Assembly (NCBI GenBank): GCA_030615855.1
Contig: JAUWYL010000003.1
Location: 2,384 to 66,383 of the forward strand
Length of the DNA: 64,000 nt
Direction of reading: 5' to 3'
Source of the DNA: a bacterium
GTDB taxonomy: Bacteria > UBP18 > UBA7526
Under the pieces are notes generated by a model that was given only the letters and a program-made list of their open reading frames with translations, was not told the origin of the DNA and did no database searches. The position numbers were made by a program, and so were the translations under genes. Positions 38,696 through 63,958 of this stretch are shown here, piece by piece; position 1 is the first letter of the stretch, and the number at the start of each line of letters is the position of its first letter.

Positions 38696-40591
38696 TTACC
38701 ACTTAATATCTAATTGAACAAAGATTGTCTTCTTTGGCTCATCTGGCCTGGCGGTATAGTCTTCATTAGTGTAGTTCTTGCAGGTATATCTCACCCGCAA
38801 CTTGATATCCTTGGTGAACTTCTCCGTAGCCTGGAGATAGTATTCATTATACCTGGTGTGCCTATCGGTATGGATATCGGAGTCATAATACTTCATCCTT
38901 CCCTCTAATGTGAGGCCCTTGGGCTTAGGTAAGTCGTAGCGCACCTTGAAGTAGGCGGTCTGGTCCTCCTGAAATTTATTGGTATACTTGCTGGCATCCT
39001 TCTGGTAGAAGGTATAAGAAGTCTCTAACTTAAGCCTCTTGATGGGGCTATATTTGCATTTGAAGTTATCGGTAATCTTCTCTCCCTCACTGATTGAGCG
39101 TCCCCGGCCGTTCCTATCGATGTCGTTATTCCTCCACTTGCGGTAGTAACTCAGGGTGAGTTTCTTTATTGGGGAGTAGTCTATCTTTCCCTTCCATTCA
39201 TCATCGGTAACTAAGGTGGAGTGCTGCTTCCACTGCTTATAGTATCCCTGAACCTTCCATCTCCTGCTGAACTTATAATCTCCTTTTATACGGTACCCCT
39301 TCTCATCGGTATCCCTTCCAAAGGACTTACTATGGGGATTTTCAAAGTCGGTATCATAATCATAGTAGATGGTCTCTAATTTGAACCTCTCCAGTTCCGT
39401 GAGGGCCTTCAGAAGATAGGCATCCCCTCCATCCTTTCTCCGACCAAACTCAGCAAATAGATTGGTCCTCTTTATCTTGGTGGCGAAGTCCAACCCGGCC
39501 ACAGAGAAGGTCCTCTTATCCGGGAACCTTGTCCAGTAACTACTCTTATATTCAAAGGGAAAGTCCCGATCTATCTTGCTTTGATACCAGGTGGCACCTA
39601 AGTGGGTTTTTTTATCCCAGCGGAAGGTGACATTGGCTCCCTCTATCTCTTCCCTATAGACATCGGGCAGGGTCTTCGATCCCAGGTTGGTGCTTACTGA
39701 GGGTAGGTCATAGTCATCCTGGGAATAGAAGACTGTAGTATCCAGCCATCTCTTCCCTAAGGGGATCTTCTTCCACCTGAAGGCTGCTCCAAAGAGGCGG
39801 TCAGTAGTGGTATCGTTATAGTAGATCCCATGGGCTTTACTTCGACCGGTCTCATTGAAGACCAGTCCCTGTCCAAAGCCCACCCCATAGTCACCAGCGA
39901 TGGCACTCCATTGGGGTTCACTCATATAGATATACTTCCTTAAGAGGCGCACCTCAGTATCCTCATTCTTGATGATAGCAGTCGATCCGGTAGCGGTATA
40001 ACCATCCAATATCTCATCCCTCTCTCCCAGGAAGCCAAGATGCACCCGATCGTAGGCATGGAGGCGAAGCCTCTCGTACATATAGGGCCTCTCCCCATCT
40101 TTCTCGGTATTCTTAAATTTAAAGCGCGACTCCCCCTTCCAACCCCTCTCTTCCTTCTTCCTCTTCTTCTCTACCATAGCAAAGGGCTCTATCTGGTCGT
40201 AGATATCCTTAATCCCAGAGATCTTCTTCATATCTTCCATACTTTTAAATAGACCATATCTTTCGCGGTAGGCAATAATCCTATCTGCTAAGGTGTAGGT
40301 TACTTCTGGAAGGTTATAAAGTTCCTTTCTACTGGCGGTATTGAGGTCCACCGGGTTATTGAATAGGTCCCTCAAGAGTTCGTAGCCCTCATGACTAATA
40401 TCTCCATCCACATATTCTTCTTCGTCATAGTCCCATTCTCCAGCCAGGTCACGCAGGTCGTCCTCACTTCCTACCCCGGATAGATCGACAGCATAGTCAT
40501 AGGCCCAGAGGGGATAGGCGCCAAGTAAGAGAAGGCTGAATACTATTAAAATAGTGAGCTTCTTCCTGCAGTCCATATTATACTTCCTCAA
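38696..40591 (-). CDS. outer-membrane beta-barrel protein with N-terminal ComEA-type helix-hairpin-helix domain
   Basis: Signal peptide. HhH unit VDLNTASRKELYNLPEVTYTLADRIIAYRERYGLFKSMEDMKKISGIKDIYDQIEPF. About 450 aa of alternating beta-strand pattern ending in the aromatic residues ...VQLDIKW. Confidence 0.5.
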   Translation of the reverse strand: MRKYNMDCRKKLTILIVFSLLLLGAYPLWAYDYAVDLSGVGSEDDLRDLAGEWDYDEEEYVDGDISHEGYELLRDLFNNPVDLNTASRKELYNLPEVTYTLADRIIAYRERYGLFKSMEDMKKISGIKDIYDQIEPFAMVEKKRKKEERGWKGESRFKFKNTEKDGERPYMYERLRLHAYDRVHLGFLGERDEILDGYTATGSTAIIKNEDTEVRLLRKYIYMSEPQWSAIAGDYGVGFGQGLVFNETGRSKAHGIYYNDTTTDRLFGAAFRWKKIPLGKRWLDTTVFYSQDDYDLPSVSTNLGSKTLPDVYREEIEGANVTFRWDKKTHLGATWYQSKIDRDFPFEYKSSYWTRFPDKRTFSVAGLDFATKIKRTNLFAEFGRRKDGGDAYLLKALTELERFKLETIYYDYDTDFENPHSKSFGRDTDEKGYRIKGDYKFSRRWKVQGYYKQWKQHSTLVTDDEWKGKIDYSPIKKLTLSYYRKWRNNDIDRNGRGRSISEGEKITDNFKCKYSPIKRLKLETSYTFYQKDASKYTNKFQEDQTAYFKVRYDLPKPKGLTLEGRMKYYDSDIHTDRHTRYNEYYLQATEKFTKDIKLRVRYTCKNYTNEDYTARPDEPKKTIFVQLDIKW

Positions 40592-40620
40592 TTACGTTAA
40601 TCGGTTACGGTTACTTGTAT

Positions 40621-40735
40621 TAGGAGTGCGGATGAGTTGTGAGTAGTGGGTCGGGGATGAGTTATGAGGGTGAGGTAATAGAACTCAACCCCATCCCCAC
40701 AACTCGACACACAACCCATAACCCACCCTCAACCT
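40621..40735. repeat. second copy of the ~120-bp palindromic element family (see 31488..31606)
   Basis: gagtagtgggtcgggg ... cacaactcgacacacaacccataacccaccctca. Confidence 0.65.
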
Positions 40736-40751
40736 TTTAACCGGATAGCCT

Positions 40752-41207
40752 TTATTTTTCTTCCATTCTCTGGAGGGCACATCCCCCACCCACTCGTCTT
40801 TCTCTCGCCTCAATGAAGGGCTCTATTTGCTCATATATCTCTAAGGTTATTCCAGGAATCTTCTTTATCTCTTCCTTACTTTTAAAAAGTCCATACTTCT
40901 TGCGATATTCTATAATCCTATCTGCTAAGTTGTAGCCTATCTCAGGAAGGTTATAGAGCTCATCCCTATCTGCAGTATTGAGATTCACCTTATTATCAAA
41001 TAGGTCTTTCAAGGTTTCATATTCCTCGTTAGTAATCTCCCCATCGACATACTCCTCTGCATCATAGTCCCACTCTCCGGCCAGGTCACGTAAGTCGTCC
41101 TCACTGGTAACATCAGAGAGGTCAACCCCATAGTCATAGCCCAGGATGAGAGGAGCAAGGAATAGGAGACTAAAAATCATCAAAATAGTAATCTTTCTGT
41201 GATCCAT
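40752..41207 (-). CDS. small secreted ComEA-type HhH protein (paralogue of the N-terminus of 38696..40591)
   Basis: 151 aa. VNLNTADRDELYNLPEIGYNLADRIIEYRKKYGLFKSKEEIKKIPGITLEIYEQIEPF. Nucleotide-level similarity to the 5' end of the neighbouring gene indicates a partial tandem duplication. Confidence 0.5.
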   Translation of the reverse strand: MDHRKITILMIFSLLFLAPLILGYDYGVDLSDVTSEDDLRDLAGEWDYDAEEYVDGEITNEEYETLKDLFDNKVNLNTADRDELYNLPEIGYNLADRIIEYRKKYGLFKSKEEIKKIPGITLEIYEQIEPFIEARERRVGGGCALQRMEEK

Positions 41208-41246: not shown

Positions 41247-42656
41247 TTACTCAATAGTAAAAGAACTTTTAAGAAAGCGGTAGGTCTCATCATCCATTCC
41301 CGGGACATCCTTCACTTCCCTCATACCCTTGAATGGACCATGGCTCTCTCTATAATCGATAATAGAACGAGCCATCCCCGGCCCAATGGCCGGCATGGCG
41401 GATAACTCCTGAAAGGTAACGGTATTGATATCCATCTTTTCTACAGTGATGAGATCTTTAAGTTTCTCATAAGTCTTAGATCCGATACGGGGGACATTCT
41501 GGATCTCAATGATACTTCTAAACGGACGATATTCGATGATGCGCCTCGCAGTCTTGGGTCCGATGCCTGGGAGGTTCTCCAACTCTTTCTGAGAAGCGAT
41601 GTTAATATTTACCTTTCGGGACACCCTCTTCCTCACCTCTGGCCTTTCTCCCGGAGGAACCTCACCAACAGTAATCAAGGGCCTCAGATTCTCCAAGGTC
41701 TTTGGCCCGATCCCCCTGGCCTTGGTCAATTCATCGATAGAGGCATAGGGTCGGGCATCTATGATGGCCCGGGCTTTCACCGGTCCAATCCCGGGAAGGG
41801 TCTGAATCTCTGAAGGAGAGGCGGTGTTGATATCAATCCTTGCTCTAACTGGAGGTGCTCTTTTTACAACCGGGACCTCCTTCTCGAGAGGGGCCTCGGG
41901 GGCTGGCTCTGCAACCTCACCAACAGTAACCAGGGGTCTCAACCTCTCCAGGGTCTTTGGTCCGATCCCTCTGACCCTGATCAGTCCATCAATGGTAGCA
42001 TAGGGACGGGCATCTATGATGGCCCGGGCTTTCACCGGACCGATCCCGGGAAGGGTCTGAATCTGAGAGGCGCTTGCCGTATTGATATTGACCAAATAAG
42101 AAGGCGCGGTATTCCTCTCTGGTCTGACTTCTTCCTTCTTCGCCAAACTCTCCCGAGCAAAATTTACCTCTTTCTGGGGTAATATCCGCATCTGAGGAAC
42201 CCTTACCACTTCTCCAGGATAGATGAGATCCGGGTTCTTGATCCTGTTATATAAAGCCAGATTAGGAAAGGCTGAAGCTATCCCCAGATACCTTTTAGCA
42301 ATCTTACTCAAGGTATCACCTTCCCTAACATAATGGGTTATTATTTCAATCCCCACTCCCGGAACCTGGAATGTTGCCTTTTCTAACTCAGGCTCCCTCT
42401 CCGGTCCAACAGTAACCAGGGGTCTTAACCTCTCCAGGGTCTTTGGTCCGATCCCTCTGACCCTGATCAGTTCATCAATGGTAGCATAGGGACGGGTATC
42501 TATGATGGCCTGGGCCTTTACCGGACCGATCCCGGGAAGGGTCTGAATCTGAGAGGCGCTTGCCGTATTGATATCTATTTTCTCCTGACCCAGCCCGGTC
42601 TGGGTCACAATAAGCAAAAGAAGGAAAATTAAAAGAACCAAGCCCTTTCTCATCAT
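41247..42656 (-). CDS. secreted protein with five tandem ComEA-type HhH DNA-binding domains and one LysM domain
   Basis: Five units of INTASxxQIQTLPGIGPVKAxAIIDxRPYATIDELIRVRGIGPKTLERLRPLVTVG. LysM: YVREGDTLSKIAKRYLGIASAFPNLALYNRIKNPDLIYPGEVVRVP. Units 1 and 2 are near-identical at the DNA level. Confidence 0.7.
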   Translation of the reverse strand: MMRKGLVLLIFLLLLIVTQTGLGQEKIDINTASASQIQTLPGIGPVKAQAIIDTRPYATIDELIRVRGIGPKTLERLRPLVTVGPEREPELEKATFQVPGVGIEIITHYVREGDTLSKIAKRYLGIASAFPNLALYNRIKNPDLIYPGEVVRVPQMRILPQKEVNFARESLAKKEEVRPERNTAPSYLVNINTASASQIQTLPGIGPVKARAIIDARPYATIDGLIRVRGIGPKTLERLRPLVTVGEVAEPAPEAPLEKEVPVVKRAPPVRARIDINTASPSEIQTLPGIGPVKARAIIDARPYASIDELTKARGIGPKTLENLRPLITVGEVPPGERPEVRKRVSRKVNINIASQKELENLPGIGPKTARRIIEYRPFRSIIEIQNVPRIGSKTYEKLKDLITVEKMDINTVTFQELSAMPAIGPGMARSIIDYRESHGPFKGMREVKDVPGMDDETYRFLKSSFTIE

Positions 42657-43085: not shown

Positions 43086-45020
43086 TCAAGGAGTCTCTTC
43101 GGGAGGGAGAATAAGAATCTCTGTCCCCGGTGGTTCCTCTTCTGGCTCCTCAACCTTCTCAGGCTCTATGGTAATTAGATCCTTCAGAACCTCATATCTC
43201 TTGGCCCCGATGCCCGGGACGCTCCGTAGATCTTCAATCCTTTCATAGGGACGGTGGGCGATGATGGCCAAGGCCTTTACTGGACCGATCCCGGGAAGGG
43301 TCTCCAATTGAGTCCGAGAAGCGGTATTGATATTGATTTTCTCTACGACCCTCTCTGGTTTGACTGGAACCTCGACCTCTTCCTCAGGGATGGACACCTC
43401 TTCCTCTATTTCTATAATCTGGATATCTGAGAGATCCTTCGGTCTTATCTCCAATTCATTAGCATAAGAACCGATCTGACCACTGACTTGAATACTCGTT
43501 CCTTGAACCAGGCTTTCCCTCTCTGGTATGCTCTCATATAGGTCCTTCCAGATAACGACATTTATGGAGCCTGTTCCATCGTCTATCTTTAATGTTCTAC
43601 CCTTCTCCTCTTTGAAGACCCTGACAGATATTATCTTCCCTTTAATGGTCACCCTTTGACCGATGGAGGCCTCGGTTATCTTACCGATAGGAACCAGTTC
43701 CGTCTCCAGAATCTGGATGTCTGAGGGTTTCTTCAGTTTTATCTCGAATTTATCCTTGTAAGATGCGACTCGACCACTGACCTGAATAGGCATTCCTTGA
43801 ACCAGGCTTTGTCTATAGAGTAGGCTCTCGTATAGTTCCTTCCAGATAAGGACATCTATGGAGCCTGTCCCATCGTTTAGCTCTAAAGTACGACCTTTCT
43901 CCTTTTTAAAGATCCTGACAGACATTATTTTTCCTTTAAGGGTTACCTTCTGACCGATGGAGGCCTCAGTTATGCTGCTGATGGGAACCACTTTTTCCTC
44001 AGGAACAGGTACCACTTCTGGCTTCTCAATCTCTTCTGGCTTCTCAACAGGGACTTCTTTAACCGGAACCTCTTCAACTGGGACTTCTTTAACAGGAACC
44101 TCTTCCACAGGAACTTCCTCAATCTCCACTATAGGAGGCTTTTCTTCCTTCCTTTTCTTTGGGCCCCCGAAACGAAAGGTCAGAGTGCCCAGATGGGTCT
44201 CATCGAGGTTATGGTGGGGAAGATAAGCATAATCAAAGGAGAGGAATCTATTCCTCAATCCCCATCCTACCATCCATCTGCCGGGATTATTAGCCACCCC
44301 GGAGCGAAGGAAGAGATACTTCAGCCAGTGGTATTCCAGGCCTAATCTGAACTCGTCATCCTCCTCTTTCTCCTGCTTCTCATAGTGATAATCTACTGCC
44401 AGGATTAAGTCGGGGTCTGGTCGATAGGCGATCCCTCCCGCATACCTCTGGGGGAGGTCGTCACCGATATGGGGGGTATTAACGTTACCTCCGAATAAGC
44501 CAAGGCTCAACTTCCCGTCCAGGAGTTTATATAAGAGTCCTAAGTCCCCTCCATAATCGAACTCCTTACCTACAGTCTCGATCTCGAGACGGAGGTACTT
44601 GGCATTTCCCCCAAGATAGATATCCTGTTTCTCAAAGGTGAACTTCCTTCCATAGGAGAAGATATAGGCATCTTCTCTTAACTTCCTGTGGCCATAATTA
44701 GTCGTGGCCAATCCAATGGTACCCAGCCTCCCCATAGGCAGAGCGAGATTTCCTAACTTATACTCTAAGTCCTTCTCCCCATAGAGCATGGTATAGCTTC
44801 CAGATAATTCTATCATTTTCAATTGTCCCAGACCCGCCGGATTGAAGTAGATGGCACTTGAATCATCTGCCACAGCAGTAAAAGCCCCTCCCATACCCCA
44901 GGCACGGGCAGAAGAGGGCCTCTCCTCAAATATAGCCCAAGCCGAGACAGTGAACAGTGAACAGTGAACAGTGAACAGTGATAAAAAAAATAAAATAAAA
45001 AATAATCGCTTAACCTTCAT
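43086..45020 (-). CDS. modular outer-membrane / surface protein: FadL-OmpP1-like N-domain, VPVEEVPVKE repeat linker, two OB-fold domains, C-terminal ComEA-type HhH
   Basis: N-terminal WGMGGAFTAVADDSSAIYFNPAGL. Linker (VPVEEVPVKE)n. Two ~90-aa OB units (ITEASIGQKVTLKGKIMSVRIFKKEKGRTLELNDGTGSIDVLIW...). C-terminal ININTASRTQLETLPGIGPVKALAIIAHRPYERIEDLRSVPGIGAKRYEVLKDL. Confidence 0.6.
   Translation of the reverse strand: MKVKRLFFILFFLSLFTVHCSLFTVSAWAIFEERPSSARAWGMGGAFTAVADDSSAIYFNPAGLGQLKMIELSGSYTMLYGEKDLEYKLGNLALPMGRLGTIGLATTNYGHRKLREDAYIFSYGRKFTFEKQDIYLGGNAKYLRLEIETVGKEFDYGGDLGLLYKLLDGKLSLGLFGGNVNTPHIGDDLPQRYAGGIAYRPDPDLILAVDYHYEKQEKEEDDEFRLGLEYHWLKYLFLRSGVANNPGRWMVGWGLRNRFLSFDYAYLPHHNLDETHLGTLTFRFGGPKKRKEEKPPIVEIEEVPVEEVPVKEVPVEEVPVKEVPVEKPEEIEKPEVVPVPEEKVVPISSITEASIGQKVTLKGKIMSVRIFKKEKGRTLELNDGTGSIDVLIWKELYESLLYRQSLVQGMPIQVSGRVASYKDKFEIKLKKPSDIQILETELVPIGKITEASIGQRVTIKGKIISVRVFKEEKGRTLKIDDGTGSINVVIWKDLYESIPERESLVQGTSIQVSGQIGSYANELEIRPKDLSDIQIIEIEEEVSIPEEEVEVPVKPERVVEKININTASRTQLETLPGIGPVKALAIIAHRPYERIEDLRSVPGIGAKRYEVLKDLITIEPEKVEEPEEEPPGTEILILPPEETP
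44944..44985. repeat. tandem cagtgaa(ca) repeat inside the signal-peptide coding region (encodes FTVHCSLFTV)
   Basis: gtgaacagtgaacagtgaacagtgaacagtg. The same k-mer family forms intergenic tandem repeats at 1533-1561 and 10423-10448. Confidence 0.7.
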
Positions 45021-45085: not shown

Positions 45086-45949
45086 TCAAAAGGCGAGGCC
45101 AAAGCCCAACCGATGGACTCCTTTCTCCGTTGCCCGGCGATACTGATAGGCATAATCTATCTTATAGTCTATTCCTCTCCTTGTTATGATCTTTATTCCC
45201 AATCCTCCTGTGGGATCATCGTGATAGCCTCCAGCCCGAAAGGCAAAGTACCTGCTTAGCCACCACTCCATACCAAAGGAATGCTCAAGTCCTACGAAGT
45301 TTTCTAAGTCATAGATATCGTAGGCGATGAGGATCTTCTTATGGGGTCGAAAGGCAATTCCTGGTCGCACATTCATCCTCCTCAATACCCCAAAGACTTT
45401 AGGCTCATTCACATCCTGAGCTAAGAGACCAGCGCTGAACCATCTTATCGGTCTATAGTGAAGGCCGAGGTCTAAGGAGAGATCATCTTCCGTCTCTTCA
45501 GAGACTCCGCTTGTCTTATGCCGGGCATCAATAAACTGGCCTCCCGCACCTATGGAGAACCCCCTGAAGATTTCCTTTCCCCAGGAAGCACCATACTGGT
45601 TTTCCGGCTCAGACCACCCTCTGCCTCTATAGCCGGCATTCAAGAAGTATAATCCCCAGGCACCATACCTCCTATCCGGCTCAGCATAGATTACCGTATC
45701 ATCATAATCTATCCTGTCCCTTTCTGCGTTATTCACAAGAGAACTAATCGAAAAGTCCCTCTTTTCTAATTGTGATAATCCCGCTGGGTTATAGTAGACA
45801 GCATTCGCATCATCTGCTACAGCAACCGCTGCCCCACCCATGCCCATCTGCCGGGTACCAACCTCAGCATAACTAACCGCAGTGAACAGTGAACAGTGAA
45901 CAGTGAACAGTGAAAGGACCAAGAGTAAAAATTTAAATATGTTCTTCAT
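45086..45949 (-). CDS. outer-membrane beta-barrel protein, FadL/OmpP1-like (paralogue of the N-domain of 43086..45020)
   Basis: 287 aa. MGMGGAAVAVADDANAVYYNPAGL. Ends in aromatic-rich RLGFGLAF. Same repeat-encoded signal peptide LSLFTVHCSLFT. Confidence 0.55.
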   Translation of the reverse strand: MKNIFKFLLLVLSLFTVHCSLFTAVSYAEVGTRQMGMGGAAVAVADDANAVYYNPAGLSQLEKRDFSISSLVNNAERDRIDYDDTVIYAEPDRRYGAWGLYFLNAGYRGRGWSEPENQYGASWGKEIFRGFSIGAGGQFIDARHKTSGVSEETEDDLSLDLGLHYRPIRWFSAGLLAQDVNEPKVFGVLRRMNVRPGIAFRPHKKILIAYDIYDLENFVGLEHSFGMEWWLSRYFAFRAGGYHDDPTGGLGIKIITRRGIDYKIDYAYQYRRATEKGVHRLGFGLAF

Positions 45950-46021: not shown

Positions 46022-49000
46022 TTATTTTCGTATTAACTTATTCGCTCCCCAAACCAATGGCTTCAATCCTGCTCTAACTACTGCCTTGAGTGGTTCTTTA
46101 TCTCGGATGAAGTCCGCAATCGGTGGCGAAATTTTACAGTAAGTAAGAACAAATGCCCGACCTAAGGGATTAGTGAGCAGATGCTGGTCTCGGAACTGCC
46201 GCAAAGCCATTATTTCAGGAGGACAGTTTAAAAAGTTGGTTAGTTGGTTAGTTTTATCCGTGCTAATCCGTGATTTTAATCCGTGCCTATCCGTGCAACT
46301 GCTGTAAGCAGCAGTAGCAATAAAGCATCCTCCACTCCCTCCACCACTCAGAGACTTGCCCACTGTGACCGTAGTCGTTGCCTCAGTGCTCGAGTTTCCA
46401 TCTTCAGCAATGGCCTTGATATAAATGGTGTAGTAACCTATAGGAACAGAGTCGCCAGAACTGTTCTTCCCATCCCATTTTGTAGAGAAACTATCTGCAA
46501 TATAATACTTATCTTCCCCTAAGGTTTTTACCACCCTTCCCCTTCCATCGAGGGCCTGAATGGTGACCTCAGACTCCTTATTAAGAGTGAAGGAGATCTT
46601 GGTATGTCTCCGATTGAGGTCGCTTCCATCCGATAGGAAGGGATCTTCAGAGACTCCTAAACCCCTGATTCCCACTCCAGAAGGCATATCCGCATTATTT
46701 ACCTTCCCTCTGGTAGGAGAGGAACAGACGCTCCAGTCACTATTTGCATTGGTATCACTTGAATCAGCGTCACGGGCGATGGAGTCATTAGCATCGACTG
46801 TAGTGCTATTAAAACAGTCAGATTCTGCCAGAGAAGCCCCAGCAATCTTCCATTGTTCAGGATCAGCATCTACTAATGCTTGGACATCTGCTTCCTCACC
46901 AGAACCCCACGTCCCACTTTGATCTGCCCAGCAAACAGCATCCTCAATATTCCCCAATCCATCCTTGAAGATTACCTGTTCATCTGTAGAGGTCAACCCA
47001 GTATCATGGGCCCAGATATTGATGATTCCATCCGAACCAGCAGTGAGTTCATCCATCCAGTAACTCATCCCATTAGTAAAGATCTCAATATTTCCCCTTC
47101 CTGTAGGAGCCCCGGTCCGTGAACCAGTTCCTGTGCAGTAGTAGGGAATACTTTTAGCCGACAGACGATCCAAACATTCAGTAGTCGGATGGTTATAGGG
47201 GTTGGAGCCGGTAGAGATGACGGCCTTATCCGGATAGACATAGGTGAGGAAGTTACTTGAGGTGGCATATCTAGCGCCATGATGGCCTACTTTTAAGATA
47301 TCGCTCGTTAATCCTATCCCATACTTACTGATCAGGTTCTCCTCCACCTCGAATCGGGGATCATTATCATGGCAGGCAGAGGATTCCGCATCACCAGTGA
47401 GCATAAAGGAGACATTCCCGTAGGTAAGGTAAATAACAATGGAACTATTATTCTTATAATCGGTTCCTTCCTCTTCAGTTGCTCCTGGCCAAGGACTGGT
47501 AGCATGGGCATTGAGCACCTTGGCAGTAATGTTATAGTCTTCATCCCAGGTATAGGTCTGGCCAACGGTGGGAACGATACCCGGAATATCATTGACATCT
47601 GAGATGGTTGGGTAACCCAACTCATTCTTTACCGCGGTAACAAAGGCATCGGTATAATAACTCTCTGGCTGGCCAGAGAGCCAGATGGCCTCTACTGTCT
47701 TATTATTTAAAACATCTGTCAGGTCACCATAATGGTCGCTATCCGCATGGGTAGCGACCATACGATGGACAGTAGTAGAGACACCCACTTTATCAAGATA
47801 GGAATCAACGATTTCCTTATTTGGGTTTCCTCCATCGATTAAGATATTTTCTCCTCCCGGAGTCTGAACAAGAATGGAGTCCCCTTGTCCTACATCAATG
47901 AAGGTGACGGTCATGCAGCCTGAGGCTGGCTGGAGGACTAAATATTCCCCGGTCTTTATTGTTGTTCCCTTGGCGATGGTCTTTATTGTTCCATCATCTT
48001 CAAAGTAGCATTCCCCGATATCTACTCCGCTTCCATCGCTGGTTCCATCAGCCTCACAATATAACTCTACCCAGTCCTTGCTGCCTGAAGCATTAAACGA
48101 TACCTCATTTATCTTAATGCTTACATCCAATTCTAAGGAAGAGGGGTTCTTCTTTCCCTTGGTAGGGGTAGTAATAAGATTCCAATCGCTCTCCTTATGG
48201 GTATCCGTTGCTCCAGAAGCATTATCTCTTCCTAAAGACTTTCCCTTTGCCCCACTCGTCCAGTTGGCAGACTGGCCTTCCTGAGTCTCATTACTGTAGG
48301 TATCCTCATCCCCGGCATCGCCAATCCATTGACGGGGACTGAGACTATCATCCGCTATCCTGTTGAAGGCCGTACGCTGGGTGCCTGCCCAGGTGCCATC
48401 CCTCTTGGCCAATGATACAGCATCGATGATGTTTCCCGAAGGATCCTCAAGGATAATGACATTATCCGTTCCGGTAAGACCAGAATCCGTGGAATAGAAG
48501 TCACGATAGCCATTCCCATTGGTATCGCTATCCACCTCATCCGCAGTAGGGTCCTCCGGGTCATCCCTGAGACGAAGGACGATATACTCATCATCAGACA
48601 TAGTATAATCTGGAAAGGTCTTGATATAGGCGCTTCTTTCCAAGACTCTCCAGGAACCGATATTCTGGGTTGTTCCCGAGACATTATGGAACTCAATCCA
48701 CTCTGGGGTATCCTTGGTAGCAATCTCATTAATCAATATACTGCCTGGGTCTCCCTCATCTGGAGCAGTAGTATTTGTTGCTTTCGGTGACCCTCTTTCT
48801 GTGGCCCCGGCATCCCAGTTAGTAGTTCCTTCTTCATTGGCAGTATACCAGTTCTTGGCCTGCGTACCATCCCCGGGGGTGCTGCGACGCTCCATAGAAT
48901 ATTTCTTATCATTGTCACCTGCTAAAGGTGTTGAACTATCACCAGCGGTATCATAAAGGATATCGCCATCCGTGTAGAGTTTTATCTGAAGAGTGCTATT

Positions 49001-57131: not shown

Positions 57132-58391
57132 TTAGATGCTGTCGGTAATGAACTCCTCTTCGTTCTCCATCTGTTGTTCGTCAGTGATGGCCTCGGCTAT
57201 GGTCTCCTCTTCCTTCCCTCTCATAAAGATCTGCAGCAGGAGATAGATGATAGCCCCTATTCTTCTTATTCCTTTAGTCCTTTCTATTGTCTCCTGAACC
57301 TTCTCTCTCCATTCCTCTCCAAAGAGGAGTATCAAGGGGATACTCTTTATAGCTAGCTTGCTCTTTTTGACCAATTTTGCAATTGGCTTCTTCTCCTCAG
57401 AGATGCGAGCGATAAGCATGATGAGGAAGAAGGGTAGGAGCCAGAAGAAACCAAAGAGTTTCCCAGGAGAGAGAGTGAAGACCAGCGGATCAGCTACCCG
57501 ATTCAAATTGAAAACCACCAGTATAGCACTCCCCCAGATGACGAAGAGGTTCCCTAAGGGATTACTGGCCTTCAAGAACCTTCCCCCTTCTGTTCTCTTA
57601 TGCATAAAGGGCCAGGCGATATTGGCTCCCATGAAACCCGTGAAGTCGAATAGCAGGTGGGAGAAGTAGCCACAGGTAATGACCGCCCCATAGACCCAGG
57701 CCTTGGCAAAGGAGCCTAAGACCAATCCCATAATGAGCCAGCCCAAGAGGCCATAGAATAGCCCTAAGATAGCGGAATGGCTCCACTGCCTATGCCAGGG
57801 AAGAAAGACAATATTTACTCCCTCTTCCTTTTTAGTAAACAAAAAGGAGGGACCGTTGAAGATATCTATGGAAGAGGGTCTTGCCTGGGCCATTAATATC
57901 TTACACTTTGTCTTGCCCCTTCCTTCTTTTGGTCCAGTGAGTTCTGTTCCTTCAATATGCACCGGGAGCTGGGACATAGAGACCACCGGTCCTAACTTTA
58001 CCATGGTCTCATTTTTTTCCACATCATAGCCCACCTGATACTGTCTCCAGTTATCAGCCCCCATCTGGACGGTGTGCATCTGAAGGGTGATGTCCTTTCC
58101 CGTATCCCAGCATTTATTGATAGCCTCGGCCATCTTATCCGCCACCTTCTGGGCATCGATAGAACTGGGGTTGCGGGAATCGAGAAGATATTCCGGGGTT
58201 GCCGGATCGATGATGTAGTCGTTCTTGGCCAACATCATGGCCAATTTGAAGTCCTGGGTATCGGGAAGTATGCCGAATAGTCCTCCTAAGACCAGGATCC
58301 AGGAATGGGGGGTGGCCATAGACATAGAAAGAGCTTTGGTAAAACAGGTGGCTGCCGCCACCCCAGTACAAAAATGGGTAAGTCCTTTCAT
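57132..58391 (-). CDS. membrane protein with a C-terminal multi-TM domain resembling membrane-bound metal-dependent hydrolases (YdjM/DUF457-like)
   Basis: 419 aa. Soluble N-half. C-half has 5-6 TM helices with conserved His/Asp (HSAILG, SHLLFDF). Confidence 0.4.
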   Translation of the reverse strand: MKGLTHFCTGVAAATCFTKALSMSMATPHSWILVLGGLFGILPDTQDFKLAMMLAKNDYIIDPATPEYLLDSRNPSSIDAQKVADKMAEAINKCWDTGKDITLQMHTVQMGADNWRQYQVGYDVEKNETMVKLGPVVSMSQLPVHIEGTELTGPKEGRGKTKCKILMAQARPSSIDIFNGPSFLFTKKEEGVNIVFLPWHRQWSHSAILGLFYGLLGWLIMGLVLGSFAKAWVYGAVITCGYFSHLLFDFTGFMGANIAWPFMHKRTEGGRFLKASNPLGNLFVIWGSAILVVFNLNRVADPLVFTLSPGKLFGFFWLLPFFLIMLIARISEEKKPIAKLVKKSKLAIKSIPLILLFGEEWREKVQETIERTKGIRRIGAIIYLLLQIFMRGKEEETIAEAITDEQQMENEEEFITDSI

Positions 58392-58488: not shown

Positions 58489-59814
58489 TTAGAAGAGTTT
58501 CAAAGCCATGCAGATGGGTGCGCCCAATCCCGCCATATTGAGGCACATGGGGATTAAGAGAATCCCCAGGCAGTTCATCCTCCGGGAATGCCACATAACC
58601 GGGATGAGACCGATGGCGGTACCGATGAGCATGATGAAGAGCCCTATCCAGCCCGTTATCCCAATCACCGTTAGGGGAAGGATGACCAAAGTAATCCAGG
58701 AGATCATCCGATAGTTTATCTTGGCGATGAGGTTGATCATGAAGCGGGAGAAACGCAGAAGGAGAAAGAAGGATAGTCCCCCGCTTATGGCCATCACTGC
58801 CATAGCCAACCAGTAGTCCCCAATGTTGTAAGCCGCGTAGTAGGGTTTGAGCATCCAGGCCAATCCCCCTCTGGTAAGATGGTTCAGGGGGGGGATAAAG
58901 AAGAGGAGGAAGGCCCCCACATAGTAGATAACCTTGGAAGTCCCCTGTGACAAAACGAAGATCCGCTCATCCCTCTGGGCAATGGCATGGCCGGATAAGA
59001 GGCCTCCGATACCACCCGTTACCCCGGGCATGAGAGCCGCAAACCCTCCTCCTAAGGTACCGGCCACCGTTCCCCTGATAATCACAGAGAAATTAACATC
59101 TACAGAGGCGCCTGCAGTATACTGCTTAGGAATCTCTGTCTTAGAGATGATGTTGGTAATCACCCAGGGGACAGCAAAGAGCCCCACAAAGGCGGGCATC
59201 AGGGATTGAAAGGCTTTCTCCACCGGGATGAGGGTTCTATTCATGACGACCAATCCCAGGGCGCCAGAGAGAAGAAGGGTGAGAAGGCCTGCTCCACAGG
59301 ACTTCAGCCCCTCCAATGTCCTCCCTAAGGCGGTCTTGGCTCTTAAGGTGGCCTTGGGCCATTCTGAGGCAATGATGTAGACAATGATCAGACCCAGAAT
59401 CCAAAAGAAGTGGGGAGCGATTAATTTCTTGACATACTTTATGAGGTGAAAACTGACCGGGAACAGGAGCCAGAGGGCGATAATCCCCCCTAAGGAACCC
59501 AGTCCGGTCAGGATGGCTGCCTCATATCCCTTGCCCTGGAGCATATACTTCTGTCCGGGAAGGACAACAAACATGGCGCTCTCATCCGGGGCTCCTAAGA
59601 ACATGGCGGGAACAGTGTTGATTATTGCCCAGGAGACGATCCCCGCCATGAACATGACCGCAACATACTCCGCCGGGATGAGATGCAGGTGAGCCCCATA
59701 CCACAGCAAGAAGTAGCCCATCACACCGTAGAGATGCAATCCCGGAATGAGGGCCAAGACTCCGGCCACTACAGTTCCCAGAATAGTCCAGAAAAGAAGG
59801 TTTAGGAATATCAT
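58489..59814 (-). CDS. TctA-like (DUF112) large permease family membrane protein
   Basis: 441 aa, ~12 TM helices. Duplicated PG-x2-G loops (LIPGLHLYG, LMPGVTGGIGG) typical of the TctA family. Confidence 0.45.
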   Translation of the reverse strand: MIFLNLLFWTILGTVVAGVLALIPGLHLYGVMGYFLLWYGAHLHLIPAEYVAVMFMAGIVSWAIINTVPAMFLGAPDESAMFVVLPGQKYMLQGKGYEAAILTGLGSLGGIIALWLLFPVSFHLIKYVKKLIAPHFFWILGLIIVYIIASEWPKATLRAKTALGRTLEGLKSCGAGLLTLLLSGALGLVVMNRTLIPVEKAFQSLMPAFVGLFAVPWVITNIISKTEIPKQYTAGASVDVNFSVIIRGTVAGTLGGGFAALMPGVTGGIGGLLSGHAIAQRDERIFVLSQGTSKVIYYVGAFLLFFIPPLNHLTRGGLAWMLKPYYAAYNIGDYWLAMAVMAISGGLSFFLLLRFSRFMINLIAKINYRMISWITLVILPLTVIGITGWIGLFIMLIGTAIGLIPVMWHSRRMNCLGILLIPMCLNMAGLGAPICMALKLF

Positions 59815-59817
59815 TTC

Positions 59818-60942
59818 TTACCCCCTTTCCCCAGTCAATCTGATATCCTCGGAATGGAGGACCTTGACCTGCATCATTCCCCGATACTGGGTTACCTTAC
59901 CTTTTACAGAGATTGAGGCTCCGGGAATAGTAACCAACCTATCCACTCCCTTCTCCACCTCTGGCCAATAGACGACTTCTATCTTGCCCGTGTTATCAGC
60001 AATAACTACATTAGTAGGGTTTGTTCTTCGCTTAAGAGTTAAAACCTTTCCGCTACATTCTACTATCTTCCCCATCCTTTCACTGGTAATGAGGCCGATA
60101 TTGAACTTGGAAACCCTCTCTTCCTTAGAGAGGGCCTCGGCCCGGGTAATCTTAAACCTATCCAGCCTTATGAGAGTAAGCGATCTTTTTCCTTTCCTAT
60201 CTACATATACCCTTCCAGAGAGTTCTACCTTATCCTCTATCCTGGGTACCTTACCGAATTTCTTAAGATCTTGGTAGGTCCACTTAGGAGCGAATACCTT
60301 GATCTTACCTGTCTCATCCTCAACCCAGAAGTTTAGATTCACCTTCTTATAAGGACGTGGAGGATATTTCACCTTTCCTTTAATGCTCACCAAAGTACCA
60401 GCCTCTAAGGGATAGACCTCTTTAACCTTGAGTGAGGAGAAAACGGCTGGTTTTATGGTAAGCAGATCCGCACTCTGTAACGAAAGTGAGGTGCCATATA
60501 CTTCATCTATCTTTATGGCTCCCGTGGCCTCCACCTCATCCTCTACCCTGGGGATCCTATCCAGCCTCGCGATGTCCTCTGTAACATCCCCCCAGGCAGT
60601 GATCCTTATTTCTCCTGTCCCATCATCCACGGTAATGGAAAAAGATCTCTTACCTTTCTTGCCTCTCAGGGGCTTTACCTTCACTACTTTCCCTACTATC
60701 TTAGCGTTGGCAAAGTTATAGAGTCCGGTAATATCGCCCACCTTCACTACCGGAACATGAATCACCTTGATAGCAACCAAGTAAAGGATCACTACCCCGA
60801 TAATGGCCATCCAGACACTGCCATACTTGAAGAGTCTTAGTGAAAGGCGATGCTTAATGTGGGCTCCACAGTAAGGGCACTTGTAATGGGCTCCTACAAA
60901 GCGACCACAACTGGGACATCTGACCTCTTCTTCTACTACCAT
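59818..60942 (-). CDS. membrane-anchored protein: N-terminal zinc-ribbon, one TM helix, three extracytoplasmic OB-fold domains
   Basis: CPSCGRFVGAHYKCPYCG. TM helix WMAIIGVVILYLVAI. OB units share motifs with those of 43086..45020 and 63377..63958 (xVDDGTGEIRITAW, ADNTGKIEVVYW). Confidence 0.5.
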   Translation of the reverse strand: MVVEEEVRCPSCGRFVGAHYKCPYCGAHIKHRLSLRLFKYGSVWMAIIGVVILYLVAIKVIHVPVVKVGDITGLYNFANAKIVGKVVKVKPLRGKKGKRSFSITVDDGTGEIRITAWGDVTEDIARLDRIPRVEDEVEATGAIKIDEVYGTSLSLQSADLLTIKPAVFSSLKVKEVYPLEAGTLVSIKGKVKYPPRPYKKVNLNFWVEDETGKIKVFAPKWTYQDLKKFGKVPRIEDKVELSGRVYVDRKGKRSLTLIRLDRFKITRAEALSKEERVSKFNIGLITSERMGKIVECSGKVLTLKRRTNPTNVVIADNTGKIEVVYWPEVEKGVDRLVTIPGASISVKGKVTQYRGMMQVKVLHSEDIRLTGERG

Positions 60943-61443: not shown

Positions 61444-61956
61444 TTACTCTACAGTAATCAGGTCCCTCCACTTCGCCAGGGTCTTGGGCCCCACTCCCTT
61501 TGCCTTGGTGATATCATCAATACTGGTGTAGGGTCGGGCAGCGATGATTGCCTGGGCCTTAGCCGGGCCCACTCCAGGAAGGGCCTGAAGCTCACTAGCA
61601 GAAGCGGTATTGATGTTGATCTTTACTCCCGGAGCAAGGGGCTTCTTCTTGGCTGCTTTGGGCTTGCCAACCACCTCTGTGGCACCCTCTACAGTAATCA
61701 GGTCCCTCCACTTCATCAGGGTCTTGGGCCCCACTCCCTTTGCCTTGGTGATATCATCAATACTGGTGTAGGGTCGGGCAGCGATGATTGCCTGAGCCTT
61801 GGCCGGTCCCACCCCGGGAAGGCTCTGAAGCTCTGCACTGGTAGCGGTATTAATGTTCACCTTGGCCTGAATTAGGGTCGCTCCAAAGATTAGAAGACCT
61901 AAAGCAAGCACCAGAATCAATCCTTTTTTCATTCTTCTCACCCCCCTTCTAAACAC
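61444..61956 (-). CDS. secreted ComEA-like protein with two HhH DNA-binding domains
   Basis: Signal peptide. Two units NINTATSAELQSLPGVGPAKAQAIIAARPYTSIDDITKAKGVGPKTLxKWRDLITVE, near-identical at the DNA level. Confidence 0.7.
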   Translation of the reverse strand: MFRRGVRRMKKGLILVLALGLLIFGATLIQAKVNINTATSAELQSLPGVGPAKAQAIIAARPYTSIDDITKAKGVGPKTLMKWRDLITVEGATEVVGKPKAAKKKPLAPGVKININTASASELQALPGVGPAKAQAIIAARPYTSIDDITKAKGVGPKTLAKWRDLITVE

Positions 61957-62196
61957 AGATTTTCACAGATTTTTTACAGCTGGGCACAGATCACAGATCT
62001 TGAAAGCCTGCTGAATTTTGAAAATTGTTTGTATCTTGTTTCTTGGTGTTTGTATCTTGTCAACGGTTTTCTATTCTCTCTTTTCTCTACTGATTTCCGT
62101 TCTCTGCCAACTGATTTCTGTTTTCCCTGCCCCGTAGGCTTGTCCTTCGGGGTAACAACCGATTTCTATTTTTATAGTCAATCACCGATCACCGTA

Positions 62197-63180
62197 TTAG
62201 AACCATCTCTTCCTACGACAGTAGACGTAGATCAGGAATCCGGTTAAGCAGATAATGCCCCAGGCGAAGAGGTAGCCGAGGCGCCACCTGAACTCTGGGA
62301 TAAAGACAAAGTTCATCCCCCACAGTCCGGTAAGAAAGGTCATGGGGATGAAGATAGTGGCCACAATGGTCAGTACCTTCATGGTATTGTTCATCCTATG
62401 AGAAAGAAGGGAGAGATGGGCCTCCATTACTGAGGTTAACAACTCCCGAAAGGTCTCGATCATACTATGGATCCTGATCAGATGATCGTGGATATCCCTA
62501 TAGTAGACGGCCATCTGAGGATGAACGAAGGGATAGTCCCTTCTGCAGAAACGGGCGATGAGCTCTCGTTGGGGAGCCATGACCTTCCTCAGGGAAATAA
62601 TGTGTCTCTTATAGGAAAAGACCTTATTTAAAAACTTCTCTGGCTTAGCAGTAGAAACAGTGTCTTCCAATTCATCTATCCGATCCTCAATGAGGTTCAG
62701 GATATAGAAGTAGTTATCCATAATGTCATCCAGAATGGAATAGAGGAGAAAGTCGCATCCCTTAGAAAGTATTTCAGGATTTTTCTTTAACTCTTCCATT
62801 ATGGTATTTATATTCCATATCTTCTCCTTATGTAAGGTGAGGATATAATTCTTTCCTAAGATAACGTCTATCTCTCGGATGCTCAAGGGCTCCTCCCCTC
62901 TCTCTTCCTTATCCTTATAGAAGTAGACAGAGTGCATGATCATAAAGAGGTAATCGGAGAACTCATCAACCTTGGGCTCTTCTTGAGGAACACGGCAGGC
63001 ATCGATCACCAGAGAATGGAGATAGATGGCCGCTCTTAAGAATTCAAAATCTTCTTCACTGGGATCGAAGAAGTCAAGCCACAGGACGTTCTTCTCATTC
63101 TTAAGAAGTTTCTTGACCTTCTTAAGGTCGATCCCGGTCTCTAACTTCTTACCTTCTCTTAGGAGAAAGGAAGTAATCAT
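62197..63180 (-). CDS. corA: magnesium/cobalt transporter CorA
   Basis: 327 aa. C-terminal two TM helices with GMN motif (LWGMNFVFIPEF). Confidence 0.85.
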   Translation of the reverse strand: MITSFLLREGKKLETGIDLKKVKKLLKNEKNVLWLDFFDPSEEDFEFLRAAIYLHSLVIDACRVPQEEPKVDEFSDYLFMIMHSVYFYKDKEERGEEPLSIREIDVILGKNYILTLHKEKIWNINTIMEELKKNPEILSKGCDFLLYSILDDIMDNYFYILNLIEDRIDELEDTVSTAKPEKFLNKVFSYKRHIISLRKVMAPQRELIARFCRRDYPFVHPQMAVYYRDIHDHLIRIHSMIETFRELLTSVMEAHLSLLSHRMNNTMKVLTIVATIFIPMTFLTGLWGMNFVFIPEFRWRLGYLFAWGIICLTGFLIYVYCRRKRWF

Positions 63181-63376
63181 CTCTCAACCCCTAATCATAG
63201 ATTATCAGAACATCAGAATGAGAATTCAGGAATCAGATTTCAGATTCAATCTGACCTTCTGATAACTGACCCTCTCCATCTGATACTCTGGTAATCTGAT
63301 ATTCTAATTATACGAGCAGCGCCCGTCTGGCCGCCGGACAGGCAACCGCAATCAATTAACGTAACTTGCAGCCTAT

Positions 63377-63958
63377 TTATTTTACAGTAACCAATGGTCT
63401 CAATTTTTCCAGGGTGGCAGGTCCGATTCCCCTTACCTTAAGTAAATCATCAACTGTAGCATAGGGTCTACCAGCGATGATTGCTTGGGCCTTGGCTGGC
63501 CCAATCCTAGGGAGAGTCTCTAGCTGGGGGACAGAAGCGGTGTTGATATTTATCCTGGCCCCTGGAACCACTCTCTTCTCTGCGGGAGTTACTCTCTTCG
63601 CTGGAGGTTTCTTTATCACTGGTGCTGCACTTAGTATCTGGATATCAGAAGGCTCCTTGGGCTTTATTTGTAGCCCTCCTCTATAGAAACCGATCTGGCC
63701 AGTGACCTGGATGGAGGTGCCGGTCTTTAGGCTTTCTCTCCGGGGTAGGCGCTGGTATAGGCTCTTCCAGATGAGAACATCTATGCTTCCGGTGCCGTCG
63801 TTAATCCGCAAAGTGCGGCCCTTCTCTTCCTTGAAGACCTTGATGCTTGTTATCTTTCCTTTGAGCCTTGCCCTCTGCCCCACGTTCGCCCGGGTCATAC
63901 TCCCAATAGAGGAGACCTCTGGGGCGGGAAGAGCCGGCGCCTTCTTTTTCGGAACCAC
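63377..63958 (-). CDS. secreted OB-fold + ComEA-type HhH protein
   Basis: OB unit ANVGQRARLKGKITSIKVFKEEKGRTLRINDGTGSIDVLIWKSLYQ. HhH unit ININTASVPQLETLPRIGPAKAQAIIAGRPYATVDDLLKVRGIGPATLEKLRPLVTV. Confidence 0.55.
   Translation of the reverse strand: MVPKKKAPALPAPEVSSIGSMTRANVGQRARLKGKITSIKVFKEEKGRTLRINDGTGSIDVLIWKSLYQRLPRRESLKTGTSIQVTGQIGFYRGGLQIKPKEPSDIQILSAAPVIKKPPAKRVTPAEKRVVPGARININTASVPQLETLPRIGPAKAQAIIAGRPYATVDDLLKVRGIGPATLEKLRPLVTVK

Follow-up and report, generated by a model that had tools for sequence, protein, structure and literature searches.

Clustered ComEA-type, OB-fold and ComEC-type nuclease modules in an uncultured UBP18 bacterium: a possible envelope system for DNA capture and degradation

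A 64-kb stretch of the genome of a bacterium of the UBP18 lineage (contig JAUWYL010000003.1, positions 2,384 to 66,383; hereafter the window) carries nine genes, g1 to g9 (Table 1), which together encode 11 ComEA-type helix-hairpin-helix (HhH) units, six OB folds, three lamin-tail domains (LTDs) and one metallo-beta-lactamase (MBL) domain of the ComEC type. Judged from sequence, the explanation we prefer, though we give it somewhat less than an even chance, is an envelope system for the capture and degradation of DNA, probably for foraging; nutritional foraging appears more likely than transformation alone. The nine open reading frames (ORFs) had been singled out in a sequence-only reading of the same DNA. 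All nine were recovered on the minus strand, which carries all sizeable ORFs of the window. Every large minus-strand ORF of at least 111 amino acids was scanned, and Pfam and NCBIfam profiles reproduced the domain calls of the sequence-only reading throughout. It had also described the products as exported or membrane proteins. Hydrophobic, signal-like N-terminal segments are indeed present in g1 to g6 and g8 and a single transmembrane helix in g7; the N-terminus of g9 lies outside the window. The further statement that these proteins consist almost entirely of DNA-binding modules is overstated for g1, g5 and g6.

The putative nuclease is encoded by g6. Pfam identifies three LTDs (E = 1.4e-37), Lactamase_B (E = 3e-10) and FlgD_ig in the protein. 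The MBL domain matches the C-terminal part (positions 432-656) of the ComEC/Rec2 profile TIGR00361 with E = 3e-27, while the whole-protein score of 95 bits is below the cutoff of 190. Four solved structures match the domain (E = 1e-18 to 6e-06) and all are ComEC proteins or ComEC MBL domains. The metal-binding set HxDxDH, GDAE and HHG is intact, with the motifs DVGQGDS at residue 799, THADSDH at 847, TGDAE at 965 and VGHHG at 1001. The protein has a single N-terminal hydrophobic segment and no match to the Competence family (PF03772). By these matches and motifs g6 is not ComEC itself but a multidomain exported protein that includes a predicted nuclease domain of the ComEC type, in keeping with the ComEC-like nuclease that had been proposed. 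The LTDs say less. A homologue search is dominated by promiscuous LTDs fused to many kinds of surface protein, thus the LTD is in itself no evidence for DNA. A role in anti-phage defence was rejected; PADLOC matches only the MBL fold of g6 (LmuA, DRT-MBL, Avs1a), and g6 has a signal peptide.

The HHH_3 domains of g3, g4, g8 and g9 contain two G-h-G hairpins in the pattern LPG[IV]GPxKAxAII...G[IV]GPKT. They also retain the lysine that follows the first GIG hairpin, as in ComEA, which is a periplasmic DNA receptor (PMC3879209). Pfam finds five HHH_3 stretches (E = 1e-94) and LysM (E = 7.5e-10) in g3. Scored against the comEA profile TIGR01259 (cutoff 152.35 bits), g3 reaches 269 bits, a value attained only by the summing of its five repeats; g8 scores 128 bits, and g1, g2, g4 and g9 score 42-56 bits. 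HhH repeats 1-3 of g3 are mutually 81-91% identical, and identity between the two units of g8 is 90%. TRF locates intragenic tandem duplications of an HhH unit at 41658-42119 (255 nt) and of an OB unit at 43416-43973 (294 nt). The multiplication of the HhH units is, by the identity of the repeats, recent internal tandem duplication and not chance. Such near-identical tandem HhH and OB arrays would fit avidity for a polymer. Both the OB fold and the HhH assigned earlier to g9 are present; its ORF, given as reaching 63958, has no in-frame stop from there to 64000 and is therefore cut at its N-terminus by the window edge.

Two of the nine genes encode barrels of the PorV/PorQ family, and one of these carries DNA-binding modules. 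In g4 Pfam reports two tRNA_anti-codon OB folds (E = 2e-22) and HHH_3 (E = 3.6e-15). The AlphaFold model (pLDDT 77.5 overall, above 90 in the barrel) has an N-terminal plug segment with short helices, 14 strands between residues 70 and 284, a disordered linker, two OB folds and the HhH. The structure prediction therefore agrees with the fusion of barrel and DNA-binding modules that the sequence-only reading had suggested for this gene. Foldseek matched the model to FadL (E = 1e-9) and to PorV of the type IX secretion system (T9SS; 8gl6_F/6h3i_F, TM-score 0.6). Both barrels are detected by PorV_fam (g4, E = 1e-15 and 58.0 bits; g5, E = 8e-17 and 61.7 bits), each below the cutoff of 90. The description of g4 and g5 as FadL-like is thus correct as to fold and can be refined to the PorV/PorQ family, by PorV_fam for both and for g4 also by AlphaFold and Foldseek. 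An orthologue of g5 with 76% identity is present in the related locus L002. We note that the signal peptides of g4, g5 (window positions 44940-45000 and 45870-45930) and P0005, a related barrel protein, share an unusual cysteine-containing string, SLFTVHCSLFT; either a recent duplication or processing at a non-standard site may account for it.

With an even number of strands, the g4 barrel should have both its termini in the periplasm, like FadL and PorV. Other tails occur on barrels that share 72-87% identity with it: one HhH (P0002), HhH3-LysM (P0003), HhH-LysM (P0004) or LysM alone (P0005). LysM is a peptidoglycan binder, so its occurrence in orthologous tails points to the periplasm, and the shuffling of tails on one orthologous barrel suggests that barrel, HhH and LysM share one compartment. 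The LysM of L002 sits on the barrel and the free HhH protein there has two units, whereas in the window LysM sits on the five-unit HhH protein g3. Such movement of a module between adjacent genes is an argument for joint action of barrel, HhH and LysM in one compartment. The cluster had been read as a candidate apparatus for the capture of extracellular DNA; the 14 strands of g4 and the swapping of its tail for LysM do not support capture outside the cell. We predict a periplasmic site for the barrel-linked and wall-linked modules, which leaves g6 as the one protein that may act outside. The OB modules are of the RPA/YhcR type, and those of g4, g9 and the g7 family are related to one another, with identities of up to 53-63%. 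An OB of the same subfamily (62% identity) is also found in a lipoprotein-like relative, P0015 (on a 21-kb NCBI contig), where it is joined to two SpoVG domains, a further exported pairing of nucleic-acid-binding modules.

The fusion of an HhH to an outer-membrane barrel had also been proposed for g1. The HhH is clear (HHH_3, E = 2.7e-15), and the family profile matches the ComEA structures 8dss/8dfk. The C-terminal domain is probably an outer-membrane barrel, although this half of the claim is probable rather than proven. It relies on a weak Porin_4 match, the C-terminus ...FVQLDIKW and about 19 strands in an AlphaFold model built from an alignment of eight sequences (pLDDT 48.6). Foldseek returned porin matches only, with TM-scores below 0.3, at best a hint. 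The ORF spans 38696-40591, with the start more likely at the ATG at 40576, matching the relatives. The neighbouring g2, previously taken for an HhH fragment, is instead a conserved gene, with orthologues of 149/153 amino acids at the same position in the L002 and L006 loci.

At the inner membrane, g7 forms a tight operon (gaps of 3 bp and 97 bp) with genes for a TctA-like and a YdjM-like membrane protein, referred to here as the triad. Besides its Zn-ribbon and helix g7 has a positively charged stretch, and by the positive-inside rule its N-terminus is predicted to be cytoplasmic and its three OB folds to face the periplasm. Neither TctB nor TctC was found beside the TctA-like gene, whose neighbours are the Zn-ribbon-OB protein and YdjM; the TctA-like protein has no NCBIfam equivalog match. 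A metagenome scan with an alignment of the TctA-like protein (34-96% identity) gave 26 further loci, which with L004 and L005 make 28. Within the limits of the contigs, the triad is present whole or in part in 24 of the 28. The TctA-like gene has an OB-array gene immediately upstream in 18 loci (none was detected in L048, L049, L051, L057 and L066) and a YdjM-like gene downstream in 20. The OB protein has about 3 to 6 OB folds across the loci. Near the triad there are additional MBL genes, ComEC-like in L049 and small in L004. Given the OB arrays we favour, with low confidence, a role for the triad in binding and importing nucleic-acid fragments. No link between TctA and YdjM was found in the literature searched, and small ORFs in two gaps outside the triad (55274-57140 and 60943-61443) include none of note.

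Table 1. Positions and make-up of the genes and domains discussed. Positions are those of the window unless a locus is named; aa, amino acids; nt, nucleotides.
Feature	Position	Strand	Description
g1	38696..40576	minus	Signal peptide, acidic stretch, degenerate HhH_3 (aa 79-137), C-terminal beta-rich domain of ~400 aa
g2	40752..41207	minus	Small exported protein, paralogue of the N-terminal acidic and HhH part of g1; HHH_3 E = 2e-19
g3	41247..42656	minus	Signal peptide; five HhH units of the ComEA type, the first two separated by LysM
g4	43086..45020	minus	14-strand PorV/FadL-like barrel (nt 44918-44169), linker, OB1 (43976-43710), OB2 (43655-43416), ComEA-type HhH (43343-43170)
g5	45086..45949	minus	Plain PorV/PorQ-family outer-membrane barrel, paralogue of the g4 barrel; weak Toluene_X (Pfam)
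g6	46022..50290	minus	1422 aa: signal peptide, three LTDs, ComEC-type MBL (aa 793-1058, nt 47914-47117), Ig-like, CFI-box (nt 46327-46025)
g7	59818..60942	minus	Cytoplasmic Zn-ribbon, transmembrane helix (aa 35-55), three OB folds (E = 8e-24); first triad gene
TctA-like	58489..59814	minus	Polytopic membrane protein, 441 aa; Pfam TctA E = 6e-31, profile positions 1-422 of 423; second triad gene
YdjM-like	57132..58391	minus	Membrane metal-hydrolase; Pfam YdjM E = 2.5e-12; third triad gene
g8	61444..61956	minus	Signal peptide and two ComEA-type HhH units; HHH_3 E = 4e-37
g9	63377..64000	minus	OB and ComEA-type HhH (Pfam); N-terminus cut by window edge
fn3 protein	51055..54339	minus	1094 aa, exported; Pfam fn3; CFI_box_CTERM 73.5 bits
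Type II secretion operon	20854..38087	minus	gspC-D-E-(nucleotidyltransferase/HEPN)-F-G-H-I-J-K-(C25 propeptide, C25 peptidase)-L-M (Pfam)
CFI-box of g6	46025-46327	minus	C-terminal domain (NCBIfam)
CFI-box of fn3 protein	51058-51357	minus	C-terminal domain (NCBIfam)
CFI-box of C25 peptidase	23535-23804	minus	C-terminal domain (NCBIfam)
PorV-like + HhH-barrel, L018	8978-11854
PorV-like + HhH-barrel, L029	8868-11974		Genes overlap
PorV-like + HhH-barrel, L037	9051-11935		Genes overlap
HhH-barrel locus, L025	5232-11764

In L002 the core gene order LTD-MBL / barrel / barrel-X / nHhH / HhH / HhH-barrel is kept, with core genes 64-83% identical. The full arrangement there is LTD-MBL / C25 / barrel / barrel-LysM / 2xHhH / HhH / HhH-barrel, followed by an NHL protein instead of GspC; it includes an orthologue of g6, and a homologue of g8 (58% identity) lies within the core cluster. 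The L006/L010 loci (88% identity) read nHhH-LysM / HhH / HhH-barrel / tRNA-Asn / GspC-D-E-F-G..., L006 keeping the last three core genes (nHhH / HhH / HhH-barrel) up to the end of its contig. The nearest genome is a cold-seep metagenome-assembled genome (CSMAG_2758) and another relative comes from a hydrocarbon metagenome. Two related proteins, P0011 and P0012, each unite a signal peptide with an MBL of the ComEC type, a ComEA-type HhH and an OB fold that shares 55% identity with those of g4/g9. These fusions tie the three module types to one activity and are the best indirect evidence that the modules are linked to DNA. Comparison of genomic context, a check that the sequence-only reading had itself called for, thus upholds the core order, the triad and the MBL, HhH and OB fusions; it does not uphold adjacency to a secretion locus or DNA-related neighbours in distant relatives.

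The HhH-barrel family of g1 is rare, with seven matches among 5.8 billion proteins. Homologues with 21-26% identity occur in Myxococcales, Chlorobi, Chitinophagales, Spirosoma and Cytophagaceae. In Chlorobi, Cytophagaceae and Fulvivirga a gene for a PorV/PorQ-family barrel directly precedes that of the HhH-barrel, a few bases apart at most, which suggests an old outer-membrane gene pair. The Chlorobi pair adjoins T9SS PorD and a HEAT-cyclophilin protein, and the Spirosoma gene is near PorZ. In Myxococcales the HhH-barrel sits between a HEAT-like giant and a protein of 349-390 amino acids.

A complete GspC-M pseudopilus locus had been noted next to the cluster, and the profiles agree: GspD scores 460 bits on TIGR02517 (cutoff 351). 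Pfam detects the PDZ domain of GspC, AMIN and secretin domains in GspD, PilM-like and GspL_C domains in GspL, and GspM; GspH is assigned by position and the N_methyl motif only. A type IV competence pilus was considered and rejected, since GspD passes TIGR02517 and not PilQ, GspC-PDZ, GspL_C and GspM are present and there is no PilT. The scanned ORFs of the window include no prepilin peptidase. The operon has two insertions. A nucleotidyltransferase/HEPN pair lies between gspE and gspF (31646-32678, minus strand), and a gene for a C25 propeptide alone together with a full C25 peptidase lies between gspK and gspL (23532-27033, minus strand), the peptidase with its CFI-box occupying 23532-26360. 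The peptidase matches Peptidase_C25 with E = 5e-55 and PorU (NF033707) with 49.5 bits, against a cutoff of 420.

Three proteins of the window end in the CFI-box domain (CFI_box_CTERM, cutoff 40): g6 with 73 bits, the exported fn3 protein with the score listed in Table 1 and the C25 peptidase with 85 bits. Their consensus is GGCFIATAAY...FRD..LL.N..G.AF...Y...SPP.A.FI...LK..VR...KP.VW. Searching with a profile built on all three yields 17,170 cluster representatives at E <= 1e-3 and 7,123 at E <= 1e-10, in host proteins of 89 to 3,234 amino acids. The match is nearly always at the extreme C-terminus, so the domain behaves as a sorting or anchoring tag. No C-terminal transmembrane helix was seen on the CFI-box proteins and no relevant paper on CFI-box-CTERM was found in the literature searched. 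The C25-CFI gene, within the type II secretion system (T2SS) operon here, lies between the nuclease and the barrels in L002, where the order is LTD-MBL-CFI, C25-CFI, barrel, barrel-LysM; the gene of the tagged protease thus appears to shift between the secretion operon and the DNA cluster. Based on adjacency and the CFI-box protease within the operon, we propose the T2SS as the exporter of g6 and other CFI-box proteins. Attachment through the CFI-box in the manner of PorU/V/Q is a plausible way to retain the nuclease, and also a rival reading of the barrels. The fn3 protein, which has no relative among solved structures, is a possible co-cargo.

If the nine genes do serve DNA capture, the g6 nuclease would be exported, probably via the T2SS, held at the cell by its CFI-box tag and would cut environmental DNA. 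Periplasmic DNA would be held by multivalent ComEA-type modules tethered to the outer membrane and to peptidoglycan, which could act as a sink or ratchet in the manner of Vibrio ComEA. Single strands or oligonucleotides would pass to the OB proteins at the inner membrane. Hydrolysis and import of the products would then fall to the YdjM/TctA-like pair or to a ComEC whose gene lies outside the window. Candidates for the passage of DNA through the outer membrane are the g1 HhH-barrel and the secretin. A bolder version, which we regard as improbable, is import of DNA or oligonucleotides independent of ComEC. The conduit would be g1 with a PorV-like partner, ComEA and OB modules would form a relay, and the triad would be an inner-membrane importer of a new sort, whose anchored OB array replaces the soluble binding protein found in tripartite transporters.

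Several observations weigh against capture and degradation of DNA. A route for DNA across the outer membrane is not established, as FadL/PorV barrels are plugged and the T2SS exports rather than imports. The HhH domains of g1 and g2 are degenerate and GspK-like, without GIG hairpins (LPEVTYTLADRII). OB1 of g4 is borderline to the periplasmic stress OB family YgiW/YdeI (NF033674; 34.3 bits, cutoff 35), for which no nucleic-acid binding is known; these periplasmic BOF proteins are associated with porins. A sequence search of the PDB with the OB pair gave non-significant matches to STN1, SSB1 and RPA. TctA transporters are known for small carboxylates and not for nucleotides. No Competence-domain protein, DprA, ComF or PilT/retraction ATPase is present among the scanned ORFs of the window, as the sequence-only reading had already remarked for the ComEC channel and DprA, and the same scans contain no nucleotidase, phosphatase or nucleoside transporter, which are usual in DNA-catabolic loci. 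Adjacency to the T2SS is kept only in the 88%-identical L006/L010 and not in L002, and the distant HhH-barrel loci of Myxococcales, Bacteroidota and Chlorobi have no DNA-related neighbours. Finally, the nine genes were described as a dense cluster. The genes are real, but they fall into three modules (38.7-50.3 kb, 57.1-60.9 kb and the two single genes g8 and g9) between which lie two DUF6036 nucleotidyltransferases, a ParB-like gene, the fn3 protein and CorA (Pfam). What remains of the DNA-capture interpretation relies on the ComEA motifs, the intact nuclease motifs and the MBL, HhH and OB fusions, with the barrel-fused modules predicted to lie in the periplasm.

The same components could instead be accessory to ordinary transformation, the expanded ComEA receptors feeding a ComEC and DprA encoded elsewhere, g6 supplying the MBL in trans and the T2SS and triad being unrelated. 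We consider this unlikely, though far from negligible. The HhH units are canonical for ComEA and g3 scores above the comEA cutoff, the MBL of g6 is of the ComEC type, and the classic comEA-comEC operons of L021, L024 and L036 display the usual HhH-MBL linkage. A split is plausible, as ComEC often lacks MBL or OB, these domains having been gained and lost many times (PMC6299819). The absence of a ComEC channel, DprA, ComF and retraction ATPase from the scanned ORFs speaks against this account as well, and g6, with its 1422 residues, lamin-tail and Ig-like domains and sorting-type tag, resembles surface nucleases rather than ComEC. The OB proteins are linked to a TctA-like permease and not to ComEC, and to our knowledge 11 HhH units and 6 OB folds are far above known competence systems. 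In another account, for which we see only a slight chance, OB and HhH modules displayed at the cell surface attach the cell to extracellular DNA (eDNA) in a biofilm matrix and the nuclease remodels the matrix; adhesion to eDNA had been suggested earlier. Multivalent non-specific DNA binders and a cell-associated nuclease would suit it, and ExeM and Xds are reported to act in biofilm formation and detachment (PMC6085458; PMC6746945). The tail of g4 is predicted to be periplasmic by its 14 strands, however, and LysM in the orthologous tails points to peptidoglycan. In addition, neither a surface anchor nor, Sec apart, a recognised export signal is visible in g3 and g8, and the OB folds of g7 are anchored at the inner membrane.

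The barrels allow a different explanation, in which PorV/PorQ-like barrels and a PorU-like C25 peptidase hold CFI-box exoproteins at the surface, in the manner of the T9SS attachment complex, and the tails only tether the outer membrane to the wall or bind a ligand other than DNA. The membership of g4 and g5 in the PorV/PorQ family fits, as does a C25 peptidase that is weakly PorU-like and bears the tag itself, as PorU bears its C-terminal domain (CTD). So do the position of the C25-CFI gene in L002, the widespread and almost always C-terminal CFI-box, the plain outer-membrane-to-wall tether formed by the barrel and LysM of P0005, and the PorV-like barrel that precedes the HhH-barrel in Chlorobi (by T9SS PorD), Cytophagaceae and Fulvivirga. 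GspK and PsbU, which the Pfam scan gives as cross-matches, illustrate that an HHH_3 fold does not imply DNA binding. As a complete account it nevertheless seems distinctly unlikely. It leaves unexplained the multiplied canonical ComEA units with intact GIG hairpins and the RPA-like OB folds, the fusion to a ComEC-type nuclease in relatives and the nuclease as tagged cargo; the PorV_fam and PorU scores are below the curated cutoffs, and T9SS core genes were not found among the scanned ORFs of the window. Attachment can coexist with DNA capture, as the means of nuclease retention. It is very improbable that there is no system at all and that common modules have merely expanded in this lineage near a T2SS, the cluster reflecting paralogy and gene density. 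The unrelated genes that split the nine, the triads that stand alone, lacking an HhH gene in the surrounding 6 kb, on many metagenome contigs and the solitary HhH-barrel of Myxococcales would be expected from it. The six-gene core order of L002, the last three core genes of L006, the module exchange between cluster genes in relatives, which argues for joint function, and the MBL, HhH and OB fusion proteins would not.

The proposed DNA-capture locus can be compared with several known systems. With ComEA/ComEC of Vibrio cholerae, Bacillus subtilis and Thermus it shares exported HHH_3 with both GIG hairpins, the ComEC MBL subfamily and an accompanying OB. It differs in having no channel domain, in an MBL borne by an exported LTD protein, in the lack of DprA, PilT and ComF noted above, in HhH units repeated up to five times and fused to LysM or a barrel, and in OB folds of the tRNA_anti-codon type, not DUF4131. 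ExeM of Shewanella consists of a signal peptide, LTD, OB-like domain, nuclease and C-terminal sorting tag (PMC6085458). Like ExeM and Xds of Vibrio, g6 combines signal peptide, lamin-tail, nuclease and C-terminal tag in a T2SS-bearing host. The roles reported for ExeM and Xds are in eDNA degradation, nutrition and biofilm (PMC6085458; PMC6746945). In contrast to both, the nuclease of g6 is an MBL and not an endonuclease/exonuclease/phosphatase (EEP) domain, its tag is the CFI-box and not GlyGly-CTERM/rhombosortase, it has three LTDs, and separate proteins carry the DNA-binding modules. In Candidatus Izemoplasmatales from marine sediment, DNA-degradation loci centre on a large exported protein with LTD, nucleic-acid-binding and nuclease parts and were read as foraging (Wasmund et al. 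2021, PMC8289736). The locus here resembles them in belonging to a sediment bacterium and in being arranged around a large exported LTD-nuclease protein. Their nucleases, nucleosidases and nucleoside/nucleobase transporters, in a wall-less monoderm, have no counterpart in the window, which has outer-membrane barrels, ComEA arrays, a T2SS and a TctA-like permease instead.

The T9SS attachment complex PorU-PorV-PorQ-PorZ of Bacteroidota also has parallels here, namely two 14-strand barrels of the PorV/PorQ family, a C25 protein that shares the tag of its presumed substrates and an Ig-like domain before the tag. Against this, the scores are below the cutoffs, there is a T2SS in place of SprA/PorKLMN, and the CFI-box is not the T9SS CTD. 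Periplasmic OB, HhH or LysM tails, as borne by the barrels here, are not known for PorV/PorQ. The TctA-like protein resembles TctABC in matching TctA over its full length and in having a periplasm-facing binding protein (here g7) adjacent. It differs in that this neighbour is a Zn-ribbon protein anchored in the membrane and bearing 3-6 OB folds, accompanied by a YdjM-like hydrolase, and that TctB and TctC are missing. As in tethers of the OmpA/OmpM type, a barrel is followed by a periplasmic wall-binding domain in P0005; unlike in those, HhH or OB modules can intervene between barrel and LysM, and the OB is shared with nuclease fusions.

Every module type in the locus is already known, as is DNA capture or degradation in the envelope (ComEA/ComEC, ExeM/Xds and the Izemoplasmatales loci, PMC8289736). 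The sequence-only reading did not recognise the architecture as a described system, and no description was found in the literature searched; nothing relevant was found there for the combination of ComEA, LysM and barrel. What appears to be new, from the predicted domain content, is the fusion of ComEA and OB modules to PorV-like barrels and LysM, the ComEC-type MBL on an LTD protein with a CFI-box, the OB/TctA/YdjM operon and the cross-phylum pair of HhH-barrel and PorV-like barrel. Extracellular DNA is a major sediment pool of phosphorus, nitrogen and carbon, and few uptake routes are known beyond competence and secreted nucleases. The locus suggests how an uncultured diderm might build the whole path for DNA from re-used parts: a channel-free ComEC-type nuclease, tethered ComEA units and inner-membrane OB arrays. 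It also offers three leads, in an OB array / TctA-like / YdjM-like operon that recurs in many metagenomes, in an HhH-barrel and PorV-like pair common to Bacteroidota and Chlorobi, and in a CFI-box on both the nuclease and the protease of the T2SS operon, which could point to a sorting route comparable to that of GlyGly-CTERM or of the T9SS CTD.

The remaining observations concern the surroundings of the cluster. Housekeeping genes (DnaB, ribosomal proteins, SSB, pyrophosphatase, Prs, GlmU and PEPCK, by Pfam) occupy 1-20 kb. The G+C content of the window is even at about 0.46 and drops to 0.41-0.445 around 50-57 kb. This low-G+C stretch (50308-56313, minus strand) contains the fn3-CFI protein, a ParB-like gene (ParB_N and HTH_ParB) and two nucleotidyltransferase-like genes of the DUF6036 family. 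It may be an islet whose insertion has separated the genes of the DNA modules.

Between g1 and gspC lies a gene for tRNA-Asn(GUU) (38107-38417, minus strand) that is split in the anticodon loop by a 236-nt group I intron (38148-38383; Rfam RF00028, 81.9 bits, E = 3e-19). ARAGORN calls tRNA-Asn after removal of the intron in silico. A 5'-leader ribozyme of the T2SS operon was therefore rejected as an explanation of the intron, since it interrupts the tRNA-Asn gene. A perfect promoter, TTGACA-17-TATAAT, is present at 38461-38433, just upstream of the tRNA. In the closest relative, L010, the tRNA-Asn at this position lacks an intron and follows a GIY-YIG ORF. Four-helix bundle proteins of the 23S rRNA-intervening-sequence type are encoded at scattered sites in the lineage, at 14324-14713 of the window and at 1365-1736 and 11978-12745 of L006; in L006 one lies between g2 and g1 and another is fused to or overlaps gspI.

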